Source: Deltaproteobacteria bacterium (GTDB taxonomy: Bacteria > Desulfobacterota > Desulfuromonadia > Desulfuromonadales > BM103). From it: a stretch of DNA of 64,000 nucleotides. Below the pieces are notes generated by a model. It saw nothing but the letters and a program-made list of their open reading frames with translations. It was not told where the DNA came from and did no database searches. Shown here piece after piece: positions 3,689 through 47,712 of this stretch. The translations under genes were made by a program, and so were the position numbers. Positions within the stretch are counted from its first letter, which is position 1. Every line of letters starts with the position of its first letter. Location: positions 11,489 through 75,488 of the forward strand of contig VAUL01000005.1 in NCBI GenBank assembly GCA_005774545.1, given 5' to 3'.

Positions 3689-4243
3689 TCATGTCGGAAC
3701 GGCTGGCTTGCCGCCAAAGATTTCGCGATGCACCTTGGCGAATGGCAGGGATTTGTGTGCATGGCCGGCCTTTTTTTCCTGCGGATAGCCGAAGCCGATG
3801 ATGCAATCGACAGCCATGCGCTCCGGCAGGGCGACGATCTCGCGGACATAAGCCTCGGCGGAACCGCCGTCGCCGTGGGGCCGCAGACGAATCTGCGCCC
3901 AACAGCTGCCCAGCCCCAGTGACACTGCCGTCAACTGCATGACGATAGCGGCAATGGCGCAATCTTCGACCCAAACGTCGCAGCGTTCCGGATCGGCGGC
4001 GACAACGATGGCCAGCGGCGCCCGGGCCAGGAATTCCGCCCCGTGCGGTTTCGCCCGGCTCAGCGCCTTGAGCCGCTGCGGATCCGTGACAACCACGAAT
4101 TCCCATGGGCAGAGCCCACGGGAGCTCGGCGCGCGCAACGCCGCCTCGATCAGGAGTTCGATCGTTTCCTGCTCGACGGGCCGTGCTTCGAACTGGCGGA
4201 TGCTGCGGCGTTTTCTAAGGATATCCAGCATAAGTCCGCTCAC
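3689..4243 (-). CDS. nitroreductase family protein
   Basis: LRKRRSIRQF..., APSS.. and the C-terminal IIGFGYP pattern are typical of NADH/FMN nitroreductases. Start is ambiguous (GTG 4243 or ATG 4231). Confidence 0.8.
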   Translation of the reverse strand: MSGLMLDILRKRRSIRQFEARPVEQETIELLIEAALRAPSSRGLCPWEFVVVTDPQRLKALSRAKPHGAEFLARAPLAIVVAADPERCDVWVEDCAIAAIVMQLTAVSLGLGSCWAQIRLRPHGDGGSAEAYVREIVALPERMAVDCIIGFGYPQEKKAGHAHKSLPFAKVHREIFGGKPAVPT

Positions 4244-5525: not shown

Positions 5526-5645
5526 CGCGGGCCTCCTCCGGGTGGGGAGAATCGGCTGAACAGCCATCCATAACAACCCGTTTGCAGCAAACCGCGTGCC
5601 ATCGAAATCGGCAAATGGTGCCTGCCCCGCCGCGACGGGATTTAC

Positions 5646-40250: not shown

Positions 40251-43200
40251 CTATCGTATCACCGTCGTCGTCACCGGTCCCTTGACGGCGCTGTCTACGT
40301 AGTTGTCCTTGACCGCCCTGACCGTGTAGCTGTAGCTGCCGGTCCCCTTCCCCGTGAAGTTGACGTACCGGTTCGCGCCGCGATACACCTCCGCGCCGTT
40401 CTCGTACAAGACGTAGGTCGGACTCGCCGTCCCGAAACTCGCCTCCCAGTAGATCCGGTAGCTCCCCGTCGTGTTGGCGGCCGGCCCGTAAAGTCCGGCG
40501 ATCGCTCCGCAGGTCAGCGTCACGCTGGTCGTCATCGCCGTCGCGGCGCTGTCCACATATCCGTCCTTGATCGCCTTCACGGCATAGACATAACTGCCGC
40601 TCTGGGTCTGAACAATGTCCTTGTAGTAACCGGCTCCGCGGTAGATCTCGCGGCCGTTCTCGGTGAGCACGTAGGTTACCCCGGGGGTGCTGCTGATCTT
40701 CCAGTTGATCCGGTATGTCGCTGCCGTGCTGCCCGCCGGACCGTAGATCACCGGAGCGACGCAGGTCTTGTTCACCGTCACCGCCAGGCCATCCTTCACC
40801 GGGCCGTCGGCAAAACCTGCCTTGACCGCCCTGACCGCGTAGGCATAGCTGCCGTTGGGCCGGTCGGCAAGGTTCACGTAACGATTCGGCCCCCGGTAGA
40901 CCTCGACGCCGTTCTCGGTCAGCACATAAGTCGCGTCCGGGGTATTGGCACTGGCCTCCCAGTAGACCCTGTAGGTGCCGTTGGCCACCGCGGCGGCGGA
41001 CGTGCCGTAGATGTAAAGACCACTGATCGAGCCACACGGCGTGGTCGGCACGGAGAGCAGGCCGAACAGGCTGAAGTGCGGCGCCTTCCCCGCCAGCGTA
41101 TGATTCTGCTTGTCATGGGTCACGTTCTGCAGCGGTTCCCAAAGTCTCGTCACCGGATCGTATACCACCAGCTGCAGGGTGTCGGCCTTCACGTTGAGCC
41201 CATCGACATAGCCGTCATCGTCCTGGTCCTCGTACGGCAGGATGATCACCGGCTCCTTCCCCTGGGTGAAGGTCGTCTGCCCCGACAGCAGCGTCACATC
41301 GACGAAGGTGCCGGCGTGGGCCTTGCCGTTGAGTTTGTCACCGAGCAGTTCCAGCGGCGGCTGGGCCACCAGCAGCACGTCATCGGTCTGCAAGGCCTCC
41401 CCCTGAATCACGATCATGATCGGTTCGGTGTCACCGTCGGTGCCGACCTCGATCCGGTTCTCGCGGGTCTGGGCCAGTTGTCCCTGGCCGTTCTCGTTCC
41501 CGCCAGGATCGCGATTCTCCACCACCTCCGGCTGGTGATGATCGATAGTCAGGGTGATGGCCTGCGGGTTGCCGTCGGTCGCGGCCCCCGCGCTCGCCAC
41601 GGCCCGCAGGTCGTAGAGCCCTTCGGCCAGCTGGCTGACGTCCCACTTGGTGAAGTACGGCGCGTCGCCGTCGGGGTTGGGGTGCTCCACCAACGCCGCC
41701 GGGATGTCGACCCAGGCAGCGCCGCCAGCCGGCTTGTACTGGAAGAGCATGCTGTCGACGGAGTTGCCGCCGCAGAAGGAGACTTCGGCCTGCACGTGCA
41801 GATTGTTGCCGCTCACCCGCTTGCCGGCCCCGGGGATCTTGATGCTCGCCAGCGGCGCCCCGAAATTGGCGGGGATGTAGAGTTTGACCTGGGTGGTCCC
41901 ATCGTCCTCGCCGGTCGGGTTCTTCGCCTTCAGCACGAAGGCGTACCAGGCGTCGGCGTTCAACGGGCCGGAGGTCCAGCTGAAGGTGCGGGCATCCGTC
42001 GCCGCCCAGGTCGAGGCCGGCGGAGCAGCCGTATACAGCAGATAGTTCGTTACGTCCCGGGTACTCGATGCCGTCCAGGTCACCGTCACCGTGCGGTCGC
42101 AGTTCAAGGTTGCCCGAAGATCCGTCGGCGGCAGCGGCAGCATGCCGACCGGGGTGACGGATACCTCATTGCTGAGGGCGCTCTCCGTTCCGGCCTGGTT
42201 CACTGCGCTGACACGGTAGCTGTAGGCGGTGCCGTTGGCGAGGTTGGTATCAAGGTAGCCGGCGGTCAACACCGCGTACGGAGTGATCTTCACGCCATCG
42301 CGGTAGACATGGTAACCGGCGAGATCCACGGCGCTCACCGCACCCCAGGTCAAAAGCGCCTTGCCGTTATCCGCCGTGCCGGCCAGATTTTGCGGCGCAG
42401 CCGGCGGCAGCGTCGCCTGACGGTTGAGCGTGATGTTCTGGGTCGAAACGGCATTGGCGATGGTAACCCCGTAGCTGCCGGCGACGAACAGCACGCTCCC
42501 CCCCGCCTCCCCGGCGGTCAGGGTATAGCTGCCGGGGGCGATCCCGGTGAGCACATACCATCCGTTCAGGTCGGTGGTCACGCTCCGGCCGGCCATCGTC
42601 ACCTCGATGCCGGAGAGGGGCTTGCCGGTCCCGGCTTCCGTCACGGTCCCCGCGACACCTCGGCGGGTCGGAGTCACGGCGGAACCGGTCGCTGCGGCGC
42701 TGAACTGGTTGCCCGCGGAAACCGGAACAATGGCGACATAGGCCGGAACGTTGTCCGGCAACCCTTCGAGCGCGAGGGAGAACGTCGAACCGCTCAGCAC
42801 CCGGAAAGGTGACAGTCCGGCAACGGTGACGAACGGCGCAGCACTGACGTAAACGGCGAAGCGGTCGACCGGATCGGCATAGGTGCTCCAATCGGCCACA
42901 ACCGTACCGCCCTGCCGGGTGTCGATCAGAACCAGCCCCGTCACCACCGGCGGGATGTACCCGTTCAGCGGGTCGGTGCCGTTGGCAATCTCGTCGTCGT
43001 TGGAGATTCCGTCGCCGTCCATGTCGGGATCGCAGGCATTGCCGAGGCCGTCGTCGTCGAGGTCGGCCTGGTCGGGGTTGGCGGCAGCCGGGCAGTTGTC
43101 GCGGTTGTCGGTCAGGACGTCGCCGTCCGTGTCGGCAAGGAGTCCCCCCTTGACCGACCAGACGTGGTAATGGTTCCCCTTGGCCTCGATCTCGACCATG

Positions 43201-46200: not shown

Positions 46201-47513
46201 CAAAGGTCGGCAACCGACGGGTTGCCGCCGCCGGCAAACTCCTGTCCGTTCGTCATGCCGTCGCCGTCGTTGTCCTGGGCGGCATCGGCAGCGTTCAGCG
46301 GATCGAGGCCATAGGTCACTTCCCAGACATCCGGCATCCCGTCGTTGTCGTCATCCGCATCACAGGCATCACCCTGCCCGTCGGTATCGGTATCCTGTTG
46401 ATCGATGTTGGCAATTGAGGGGCAGTTGTCATCGATGTTCGCGACCCCATCCGCGTCCGTGTCAACCAGGTTTACGTCGGTGGCGGAGTTGATTGCGCCA
46501 GCCACAACCACCGTGGCCAGGGTGGTGATCGTGTCTGTATGTGCAGGCACCAACGGATCGGCTACAACGGCATTGACCGTGAACGTCACGCTGCCGTTTG
46601 CCGGCATGACGGGAATGGTTGCTCCGGCGTTCTGCATCTCTGCCACGGTGATGCCCGGACAGGTCGCCCCTCCCGAAGCGCTGCAGGTGACGCTGGCGAC
46701 GGCAAGATTATTCGCCAGGGGACTGGTGAATACCGCATTGCTCAGCGGAGCACCGGTGGTATTGGTGACGGTGACTGAATAGGCAAGCGAGGCCCCGGGG
46801 CTGACGACCTCAACTCCATCGGTGATGGTGATGGCCGGAAGCACGATGACATTGACGGTACCGTACTGGACCTCGGTGGCGACCGTAACGTCCGGTGCGT
46901 TGCACTTTGAGCTGGTATTGGGGACCGGATCGGCGATCGAGGTGCAATCGGCGCCGGTCGGGCTCGCCTGGTTGTCCCAACTGACAACGAAGGGAATGAA
47001 CAGGTTGCCGTTGCTGAGGGGGATCGCGCGGCAGGCCACCGGAACGGAAGCATAGCGCACCACACCCGAGCCGGTGTCGCCGTTGATGGTGCCGCTGCCG
47101 TCGCCGCAGGTGTCGAGGCCGCCGTTGGGGTCAAGATCGGAAAACGGACCGGTGTTTGGCAGAATCCCGACCATGCAGCCGGTGGCACCGCCGTTCTCTG
47201 AAAGAAGCTGGGGATCCTTGCCGTCGTTGGCAAGGAAGATGCCGACATCCCAGCGGTCCGGGGTGGCAAAGTTGACCGTGATGTCAAAATCGGCCGTGAA
47301 CGTGGTGCCGCCGACACAGGACGTCGGGTTGCCCGGGGCGACGGCGATGCCGGTGATGGAGACGTCGTTGGCCGTACAGAGCAGATCACTGCCAAAGCGC
47401 GAGCCGACACATTCATTGACGCCATAGGCATGAGCCGAAGCTGCAAACGAGACCATGCAGACCGAAACAGCCAATGCTCCCCACAACCGTGCCCAGATGT
47501 TCGTGATCTTCAT
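40251..47513 (-). CDS. 2420-aa secreted mosaic adhesin-like protein (signal peptide; DUF11-like repeat; 3 thrombospondin type-3 Ca-binding blocks; vWA/PilY1-N-like region; Fn3 domains; 2 DUF1566/Lcl-C domains; CarboxypepD_reg-like domain; 3 C-terminal tandem repeats)
   Basis: Signal peptide [32 protein letters not shown]3 blocks such as DTDADGV.N.DDNCP..AN.DQ.D.D.DG.GDACD. Fn3 such as [25 protein letters not shown]1566 as [20 protein letters not shown]...[13 protein letters not shown]...W.V....G.......WPVRDG, twice. CarboxypepD_reg-like [44 protein letters not shown]. Confidence 0.85.
40254..41036 (-). repeat. three tandem ~85-91-aa C-terminal protein repeats, each beginning with Cys
   Basis: The three repeats are [20 protein letters not shown]...[20 protein letters not shown]......[30 protein letters not shown]...[15 protein letters not shown]......[13 protein letters not shown] and [19 protein letters not shown]...[20 protein letters not shown]...[13 protein letters not shown]. 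Confidence 0.8.
42966..43101 (-). repeat. intragenic direct repeat copy A (TSP3 block), 130/136 identical to copy B
   Basis: Hand alignment with 44217-44352 shows 6 mismatches. The offset is exactly 1251 nt (417 codons). Confidence 0.9.
44217..44352 (-). repeat. intragenic direct repeat copy B (TSP3 block)
   Basis: See copy A. Both copies encode [41 protein letters not shown]. Confidence 0.9.
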
Positions 47514-47540: not shown

Positions 47541-47578
47541 GAATACAAAACGCCCCTCTCCTCACTGAAGACGGGCGC
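47541..47578 (-). terminator. intrinsic terminator/attenuator in the 5' leader of the giant gene (riboswitch expression platform candidate)
   Basis: The minus strand reads CGCCCGUCUUCAGUGAGGAGAGGGGCG followed by UUUUGUAUU, 25-60 nt upstream of the ATG at 47513. Confidence 0.6.
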
Positions 47579-47619
47579 CCAAGGGTGTAAACCCTGCCTG
47601 CAACTTCCCCCTGAATATC

Positions 47620-47712
47620 ACGCTCTCTTCGGCGGCCCGGCCGGCCCGCGAGTCAGGGCCCCGAGGCTTTGCGACACCGGCTCTCACCGGTTGTGCCTTT
47701 ATCGGAGAACAA
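47620..47712 (-). promoter_or_regulatory. GEMM-I (c-di-GMP-I class) riboswitch aptamer candidate
   Basis: The minus strand reads GAUAAAGGCACAACC-GGUGAGAGCCGG-UGUCGCAAAGCC-UCGGGGCCCUGACUCGCGGGCCGGCCGGGCCGCCGAAGAGAG. It has a GGCA.A.CC start, a 6-bp hairpin capped by the GNRA loop GAGA, the near-invariant CGCAAAGCC linker, a GC-rich second hairpin and a GCCGAA close. It aligns by eye to V. cholerae Vc2. Confidence 0.72.

Follow-up and report, generated by a model that had tools for sequence, protein, structure and literature searches.

A predicted class-I c-di-GMP (GEMM-I) riboswitch in the leader of a giant secreted-protein gene of a deltaproteobacterium

Upstream of a gene for a secreted protein of 2420 amino acids (aa), in a 64-kb stretch of deltaproteobacterial DNA (64,000 nucleotides (nt) of contig VAUL01000005.1, assembly GCA_005774545.1, here called the window, with positions counted from its first letter), the minus-strand segment 47710-47542 is, as far as its sequence can tell, a class-I riboswitch for cyclic di-GMP (c-di-GMP), that is, a riboswitch of the GEMM-I family. 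The explanation that we prefer for the whole, and regard as fairly probable, is a transcription-attenuating c-di-GMP-I riboswitch that acts as an OFF switch before a surface-protein gene. GEMM-I is among the most abundant and best-studied riboswitch classes, the window adds one more, and as an aptamer it is an ordinary addition to a very well known RNA family, which a standard Rfam scan or annotation pipeline finds. Why then is it of concern? Through it a particular giant secreted protein of an uncultured deltaproteobacterium is tied to c-di-GMP signalling, and the prediction that comes with it, namely that high c-di-GMP represses the gene, can be tested and runs somewhat against intuition. 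What is more, its relatives form a natural series of orthologous leaders that differ at the single nucleotide deciding between c-di-GMP and cyclic GMP-AMP (cGAMP).

The aptamer and its relatives

All 4227 Rfam families were scanned at their gathering thresholds against both strands of the window. The family RF01051 (c-di-GMP-I, the same as GEMM-I) matches the minus strand at 47707-47628 with 57.7 bits against a gathering threshold of 35 (E = 1.1e-8). The alignment spans model positions 1-87, which is the full model without truncation, and it is the sole match at gathering threshold in the 64 kb. A covariance model of our own, R1, built in this analysis, scores the aptamer with 92.7 bits over 47713-47619 on the same strand. 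The original prediction, made from the letters of the DNA without database searches, had recognised a GEMM-I aptamer here and had named the RF01051 threshold as the check; the aptamer passes it, and the leader sequence that was quoted then is found again on reading the minus strand from 47950 to 47350. On every point that sequence can address, except the tetraloop receptor, the element agrees with membership of RF01051. It stands in the 5' leader, in sense orientation to the open reading frame (ORF), and ends 109 nt before the ATG at 47513, with a terminator and a U-tract between.

Could such a resemblance to GEMM-I arise by chance in GC-rich DNA, without any RNA element? One observation fits this, namely that the minimum free energy (MFE) of the aptamer is no lower than that of shuffled sequence (z = 0.08). 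The identification rests on the comparative data and on the structure-aware model. The latter gives E = 1e-8 with no other match in 64 kb, and homologous aptamers with compensatory changes occupy the same position upstream of homologous genes. Both lines of evidence speak against a chance match; we give it a negligible probability, and it may be taken as effectively refuted by the Rfam match, the aptamers of the relatives and the pairing in the alignment. A second GEMM-like match at 3835-3927 of the window (16 bits with model R1, E = 0.11) lacks the conserved core, does not appear in the Rfam scan and was rejected.

The loci of the closest homologs of the gene were drawn from genomes, metagenomes and a protein collection, and six related leaders were obtained from them: L002/L084 (a Geobacteraceae metagenome-assembled genome, MAG), L082, L109, L110, L113 and L115. 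Upstream of the homologous gene a GEMM-I aptamer scores 50-60 bits with the Rfam model in the first five, and in L115 it was found with model R1 (96 bits). No GEMM aptamer was found upstream of the gene in L001 (a Desulfuromonas MAG, 61% identity) or in at least 25 further homologous loci from Gallionella, Nitrospirae, Burkholderiales and others. By these comparisons the window leader is one of a small clade of homologous leaders, which in Geobacter/Desulfuromonas-like bacteria precede homologous genes.

The alignment of six aptamers (A1) shows how well the helices are kept. Over all helices 95.5% of the cells pair, and 10 of the 30 pairs have double-sided changes; none of 500 shuffles reaches the observed pairing, and slid controls pair in 28-51% of the cells. 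For P1 alone the proportion is 93.8%, and its pair 5-103 is seen as C-G, G-C and U-A. Among the relatives, double-sided changes occur in three of the six pairs of P2 and in six pairs of P3. The predicted three-helix architecture of P1, P2 and P3 is supported by these compensatory changes in homologs.

Apart from the elements listed in Table 1, P2 of the window is closed by G-C/C-G pairs (47696-95 with 47672-71), and the 3' closing segment of the aptamer reads GCCGAAGAGAG on the minus strand. P3 is about 10 nt shorter than in the relatives. The bulge in P3 had been proposed as a possible tetraloop receptor, a suggestion to which the alignment lends no backing, as the columns of the canonical 11-nt GAAA tetraloop receptor (CUAA/AUG) are deleted in the window aptamer and in all relatives. 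The GAGA tetraloop on P2 is present, and P3 may still hold a receptor of the helix type. Beside the binding pocket, the pair that closes P3 (47634 with 47668) is A.C in the window and in L002, L082, L110 and L113, and A-U in the Rfam consensus and in L109.

Ligand selectivity

Which cyclic dinucleotide would such an aptamer bind? In the reference aptamer Vc2, G20 pairs with the ligand's G-alpha and A47, an intercalating adenine, sits between the two ligand bases, and C92 is the Watson-Crick partner of G-beta in GEMM-I. It is G20 that recognises one guanine of c-di-GMP, and the cGAMP class has A there (PMC6140456). Wild-type Vc2, which has G20, takes cGAMP at about 10 uM as against picomolar c-di-GMP (PMC6140456), and the Geobacter GEMM-Ib riboswitch Gmet_0970, which is selective for cGAMP, becomes selective for c-di-GMP on the change A20G (PMC6456294, Fig. 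2 legend).

In the window the ligand-contacting positions are all canonical, with G20 at 47697, A47 at 47670 and C92 at 47632. The mapping of G20 was cross-checked on the published sequence and numbering of Cd1 and on the spacing between G20 and A47. In Cd1, GGCAAA begins with G11 ('key nucleotide for c-di-GMP recognition'), the A that comes first behind CGC is A38, and GCCAAA has C87 as its first C (PMC9262584); the corresponding numbers in Gs1761 are A14, A41 and C75 (PMC5888326). The spacing is 27 nt in the window, equal to that in Cd1 and in Gs1761. The original prediction had also called the base at position 20 a G, but had placed it at the G preceding the C of CACAACC and had suspected an extra C in that motif. 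The identity of the base holds and its position does not: the model aligns the stretch without insertion or deletion, the C is a substitution (ACA for AAA), and the true site lies one base 5' of the G preceding the C, at 47697. Both candidate bases are G, so the preference for c-di-GMP over 3',3'-cGAMP drawn at that time is unaffected by the correction, and it is borne out by the G at the selectivity position together with the published A20G switch.

Among the related leaders, position 20 is G in the window and in L113 (~844), and it is A in L002/L084 (L002 ~353), L082 (~1187), L109 (~1228), L110 (~70) and L115 (~300). This distribution suggests that the homologous leaders are c-di-GMP and cGAMP versions of one regulatory unit. 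Because the selectivity position is G on a scaffold whose close relatives are A20, the ligand of the window aptamer, if the aptamer is functional, is very probably c-di-GMP rather than 3',3'-cGAMP. The nucleotide that defines GEMM-Ib (A20, or A14 in Gs1761) is absent, with G at 47697 in its place, and the window aptamer thus falls outside that subclass.

The alternative is an aptamer for 3',3'-cGAMP, or one that responds to both cyclic dinucleotides, as GEMM-Ib aptamers of the closest relatives would. The A20 of five of the six related leaders marks the scaffold as one of the Geobacter GEMM-Ib type, and many natural members have been reported to be bispecific, with a selectivity influenced by the stability of P1 (PMC6140456). 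Position 20 of the window is nevertheless G. With G20, Vc2 discriminates strongly against cGAMP (10 uM against pM), and the single change A20G is enough to make a Geobacter GEMM-Ib riboswitch c-di-GMP-selective. Sensing of cGAMP, alone or besides c-di-GMP, is for these reasons quite improbable. Candidates for cyclic-dinucleotide enzymes nearby were rejected: the matches to GSDEF and EALxR motifs lie antisense to SHMT or inside AAA ATPases, and they provide no ligand context.

Terminator and direction of control

Downstream of the aptamer, the original prediction had pointed to a plausible intrinsic terminator at a distance of about 45 nt. A hairpin with a stem of 10 bp, one G.G mismatch and a 5-nt loop, together with its U-tract, does lie 45 nt after the aptamer and 29 nt before the ATG. 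Its folding energy is -20.4 kcal/mol (z = -4.56), a stability that none of 200 shuffles equals, and UUUUGUAUU follows it directly. As a GC-rich stem-loop with a U-tract, the element is a predicted intrinsic (Rho-independent) terminator. A scan with a strict terminator pattern missed the hairpin because of the G.G mismatch in its stem.

Does the ligand turn the gene off or on? The original prediction had named no direction of control, and two published platforms give the terms of comparison. In pilM, an ON switch, the 5' arm of the terminator is the aptamer's own 3' strand, and aptamer and terminator are mutually exclusive (PMC9262584). In Cd1, an OFF switch, a separate terminator coexists with the bound aptamer, and in the ligand-free state an antiterminator arises when the 3' strand of the aptamer pairs with sequence of the terminator (PMC9262584). 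A separate terminator that does not overlap the aptamer is found in the window and in all six relatives. In the window the P1 3' strand is separated from the terminator by 45 nt, and the terminator still forms when the aptamer is enforced (P = 0.997). Sealing the aptamer abolishes the terminator in pilM but leaves that of the window, and the overlap that characterises the pilM-type platform is absent from the window.

The sequences from which an antiterminator would be made are conserved as well. The 5' arms of the terminators in the relatives read GCGCCCGxCUUCxG and are homologous to the arm in the window. In a curated alignment of the seven leaders, CUUC(G/A)G in the terminator 5' arm and CCGAAG in the aptamer 3' strand are complementary, and these A:T pairs are formed in 41 of 42 cells. 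The neighbouring B:B' helix, whose B' stands just upstream of that arm, pairs in 34 of 35 cells. Its double-sided changes are two in number, one in L109 and one in the window, each from U-A to C-G, where slid controls of the two helices give 24-62%. The B:B' pairing also appears in the best structure without the terminator. Because the architecture, with its separate terminator, and the relatives point to a Cd1-like layout, we lean towards an OFF switch, in which c-di-GMP would promote termination and lower the transcription of the 2420-aa gene.

The proposed switch would work as follows. Without ligand, the aptamer 3' strand CCGAAGAGAGCGU (47632-47620) would part from P1 and join GCGC...UCUUCAG (47578-47565), the 5' half of the terminator, in an A:T/B:B' pairing that would hinder the terminator, and RNA polymerase would read into the gene. 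With c-di-GMP bound, C47632 would pair with the ligand and P1 (47710-03 with 47631-22) would be locked. The 5' arm of the terminator would then be free to pair with 47561-51, and transcription would stop at about 47545. At high c-di-GMP less of the giant surface protein would be made.

Equilibrium folding was tried as a means to decide between ON and OFF. It gives a terminator probability of about 1 in both states, which is uninformative, and it was replaced by a measure of the cost of avoiding the terminator, calculated with the aptamer either free to pair downstream or sealed off, with Cd1 as the OFF control and pilM as the ON control. With the aptamer free, the cost is lower by 5.6 kcal/mol in the window, by 5.1-16.2 in five relatives and by 6.1 in Cd1. 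The same measure is -8.9 kcal/mol in pilM, where the terminator vanishes once the aptamer is sealed. The window (+5.6) therefore has the sign of the OFF control (+6.1) and not that of the ON control. A further control used permuted stems, in which the pairs of the terminator stem were shuffled so that the stability was kept and the sequence changed (60 variants). The effect was matched by 1-4 of the 60 in the relatives and Cd1 (2 in Cd1), and by 7 in L002.

There are several points that weigh against an OFF switch in the window. Its own energy effect is matched by 12 of the 60 permuted stems and is thus indistinguishable from chance. The antiterminator is weak: it has a C.A mismatch (47631/47566), its B:B' helix is only 4 bp long, and it is 8.5 kcal/mol less stable than the terminator, which folds at equilibrium with P ~1 whether the aptamer is enforced or not. 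The canonical tetraloop receptor is absent and P3 is shortened. No promoter or transcription start was identified, a sigma-70-like site having been sought in the spacer upstream of the aptamer and none found there. Repression of a putative adhesin by c-di-GMP is contrary to the usual biofilm logic. Finally, all genes under GEMM-Ib control in G. sulfurreducens fall on deletion of the cGAMP synthase, which means that they are switched ON (PMC6456294). Since folding yields the terminator with or without an enforced aptamer, a switch could work only kinetically, as has been reported for Cd1. And because the energetics of the window match those of permuted stems, its assignment as OFF rests mainly on the homology of its platform to the relatives: the antiterminator pairing of the aptamer 3' strand with the 5' arm of the terminator is conserved across the seven leaders and weak in the window itself.

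Might the same aptamer and terminator be wired as an ON switch, so that c-di-GMP induces the surface protein? The ligand would then free the G-rich linker GGGGGAAGUUGC (47611-47600) from the P1 5' strand, and the linker would pair with the terminator 5' arm to allow read-through. Unconstrained folds do pair the P1 5' strand with this G-run and not with its P1 partner, the 3' strand. The linker GAAG..GC..GGC, for its part, pairs with the terminator 5' arm in transcripts that stop short of the 3' arm. That c-di-GMP commonly induces adhesins counts for this wiring too. The known Geobacter GEMM-I/Ib switches, moreover, are ON (PMC6456294). However, avoiding the terminator costs 14.1 kcal/mol with the aptamer sealed and 8.5 with it free, the opposite of what an ON switch needs and of what the ON control pilM gives. 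The G-run of the linker is not conserved in the six relatives, while the A:T and B:B' complementarity is, and the overlap of terminator and aptamer seen in pilM is missing here. We therefore consider an ON switch unlikely.

A relic that is decaying or no longer switches has to be weighed as well. The hairpin would in that case be a constitutive attenuator or a stabilising structure, and expression would be independent of cyclic dinucleotides. This would suit the P3 that has lost about 10 nt relative to the relatives, the weakened antiterminator with its C.A mismatch and short B:B', a second conserved leader hairpin reduced to a remnant, switching energetics no better than those of permuted controls, and a terminator predicted in both states. 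Against it stands an aptamer that has kept all its helices, its GNRA loop and all the nucleotides in contact with the ligand, and whose 57.7 bits are as high as the scores of the relatives (50-60). Its P1, moreover, covaries (G-C in the window as against C-G or U-A in the relatives) and is not decaying. A relic is accordingly a rather improbable account, and the OFF switch described above remains the explanation that we prefer.

The gene, its surroundings and known systems

Table 1. Features of the leader and its gene, with positions in the window (minus-strand features are given from their 5' end)
Feature	Position	Strand	Basis
Terminator after lrgAB: 14-bp stem 47881-47850, then GUUUUUUGCA	47881-47840	-	terminator scan
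Spacer that must hold the promoter of the unit	47839-47711	-	
P1 5' strand GUUCUCCG (GUUCUC+CG)	47710-47703	-	pairs with 47631-47622 (CG, AA bulge, GAGAGC)
Ligand-selectivity G (equivalent of Vc2 G20, Cd1 G11, Gs1761 A14)	47697	-	model alignment
Aptamer entry segment GGCACAACC	47697-47689	-	sequence reading
P2 hairpin ACCGGU-GAGA-GCCGGU, GNRA tetraloop	47691-47676	-	model alignment
Junction CGCAAAGCC, holding the A47 equivalent	A47 equivalent 47670	-	first A after CGC of CGCAAAGCC in model alignment
P3 hairpin, GC-rich, 3+3+5 bp, U bulge, GG bulge 47642-41, 8-nt loop	47667-47635	-	
C92 equivalent (47632) and P1 3' strand CGAAGAGAGC ('A strand')	47632-47622	-	
B segment GCGU, candidate part of an antiterminator	47623-47620	-	can pair with B' GCGC 47578-47575
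Linker hairpin AGGGU-UUAC-ACCCU, small	47595-47582	-	predicted in all folds
Predicted terminator hairpin: 5' arm CGCCCGUCUUC 47577-67, loop AGUGA, 3' arm GGAGAGGGGCG 47561-51	47577-47551	-	
U-rich tract UUUUGUAUU directly after the hairpin	47550-47542	-	sequence reading
CCGAUUGGGGGCACC with Shine-Dalgarno-like GGGGG run 47522-18, then ATG 47513-11	47528-47511	-	
Gene of the 2420-aa secreted multidomain protein	47513-40251	-	ORF and domain searches

The positions of all features are collected in Table 1, in which the 'A strand' CGAAGAGAGC is the segment contested between P1 and the 5' arm of the terminator. The genes lrgA and lrgB lie upstream on the same strand (Pfam LrgA/LrgB), a phosphoglucomutase gene lies downstream, and the G+C content of the window is 64.7%. 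The terminator after lrgAB, with its 14-bp stem, has a folding energy of -29.2 kcal/mol (z = -6.43), in agreement with the earlier proposal that a strong terminator insulates the riboswitch unit from lrgAB. A sigma-54-like string, GG-N10-GC, was seen by eye at 47742-47727 and dropped as evidence, as it has 4 mismatches to the consensus; loose matches of this kind are at or below chance in the window, with 45 found and 69 expected. The best such string of the window is TGGCACGCGGTTTGCT at 5586-5601 on the minus strand, which is near consensus with 1 mismatch to TGGCACG-N4-TTGCA.

Between terminator and gene, the relatives have a second conserved hairpin, GACCAAAUUUGGCAC..GGUGU..UUGGUC, which shows 3 double-sided covariations (L082:1350-1490, L109:1383-1505, L110:236-365, L113:1006-1130) and which no Rfam family matches. 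They also share a conserved start region there, AACAGGGGAA..UUGUUCAUG, of which the window keeps only CCGAUUGGGGGCACC before the ATG (47528-47514). The sequence CCGAUUGGGGGCACC resembles the start of the second hairpin.

What kind of protein would be under control? The 2420-aa protein has a signal peptide and an N-terminal module of the DUF11/CLIPPER type, and in addition two Lcl_C domains, TSP3 repeats, CarboxypepD_reg and fn3; three repeats make up its C-terminus. The TSP3 repeats, both Lcl_C domains, CarboxypepD_reg and fn3 are Pfam matches, and NCBIfam gives similarity of the cohesion or adhesin type below cut-off only (MtsC, Lsa25). The word adhesin is a plausible, putative label guessed from the domains (Lcl_C, TSP3, fn3 and the DUF11-type N-terminus). 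The C-terminus (40251-41000, minus strand) consists of three tandem repeats of about 80 aa with the pattern ..G.Y.I/VYWE.S....YVL.ENG.EVYRG..RYV......GSY.Y.VRAVK..Y.DS..; these repeats have no Pfam match, and a recognisable C-terminal sorting signal is absent from the protein. An identical 2420-aa protein is encoded on contig SRXA01000001.1 of GCA_009724995.1. The protein collection has the 2420-aa product from the NCBI assembly, but without the accession and name that its neighbours (TLM67894.1, TLM67896.1) bear, and it may be unannotated or flagged in the deposited record.

The first 350 aa (46464-47513, minus strand) are 45-66% identical to a family of secreted proteins of about 500 aa of the DUF11/CLIPPER type ('TIGR01451 repeat'; P0001-P0120), which is widespread and occurs in Gallionella, Nitrospirae, Rhodoferax, Polaromonas and Ramlibacter. 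The 2420-aa protein is a long fusion onto this module, and the riboswitch is confined to the closest clade. The family tends toward arrays: in one locus (L111:130-2343) the N-terminal module is present as two paralogs of 365 aa in tandem, with no GEMM aptamer in the sequence examined, and in another (L117) several CLIPPER-type genes stand in a row.

What do the relatives add? It is possible, though we hold it with some doubt, that the leader family combines one conserved OFF-type platform with G20 or A20 aptamers before the same surface-protein gene family, which would be a natural rewiring between c-di-GMP and cGAMP and would include the first OFF-acting cGAMP riboswitches. If true, these would be the first cGAMP riboswitches to switch genes off, every characterised Geobacter GEMM-Ib riboswitch being ON, and an OFF-type platform has not yet been described for the Geobacter cGAMP class. 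The series of leaders could also be used to study the evolution of ligand specificity and of regulatory sign in riboswitches.

The likenesses and differences to known systems can be set out in the same terms. With Vc2, the structural reference of GEMM-I from the V. cholerae tfoY leader, the window aptamer shares the three-helix junction, G20, A47 and C92 with the 27-nt spacing from G20 to A47, a P2 capped by a GNRA loop, and the 3' segment GCCGA. It differs in having GAGA for GAAA, no 11-nt receptor, ACA for AAA in the P2 linker, and A.C for A-U at the base of P3. Secreted or surface protein genes are likewise controlled by Vc1 in the V. cholerae gbpA leader and by the c-di-GMP riboswitches of adhesin and pilin genes in C. 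difficile. These cases were reported as ligand-induced, and several of those in C. difficile belong to class II, whereas repression is what we infer for the window.

The closest parallel in layout is Cd1, the OFF switch in the leader of the flagellar operon of Clostridioides difficile. In both, the aptamer is of the GEMM-I family and carries G where selectivity is set, and the downstream terminator is a separate one, able to form beside the folded aptamer (PMC9262584). An antiterminator made from the aptamer 3' strand, including the C that pairs with the ligand, and terminator sequence is known from Cd1 (PMC9262584), and the window has a weak candidate for one. The energy measure has a like sign and size in the two (+6.1 in Cd1, +5.6 in the window), but the antiterminator of Cd1 beats its permuted controls (2/60) and that of the window does not (12/60). 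Cd1 moreover belongs to another phylum, is AT-rich, has the canonical GAAA tetraloop with its receptor, and precedes flagellar genes where the window has a giant secreted protein.

The Geobacter GEMM-Ib riboswitches (GSU1761/pgcA, Gmet_0970 and pilM) are nearest by lineage, the same or a neighbouring one (Desulfuromonadales/Geobacterales-like MAGs), and by scaffold, with non-GAAA GNRA loops and A20 in five of the six homologous leaders. The window differs from them by its G20, the very change that has been shown to convert selectivity to c-di-GMP. The characterised examples, moreover, switch ON and have a terminator that overlaps the 3' strand of the aptamer, whereas the terminator of the window is separate and its wiring looks OFF-like.

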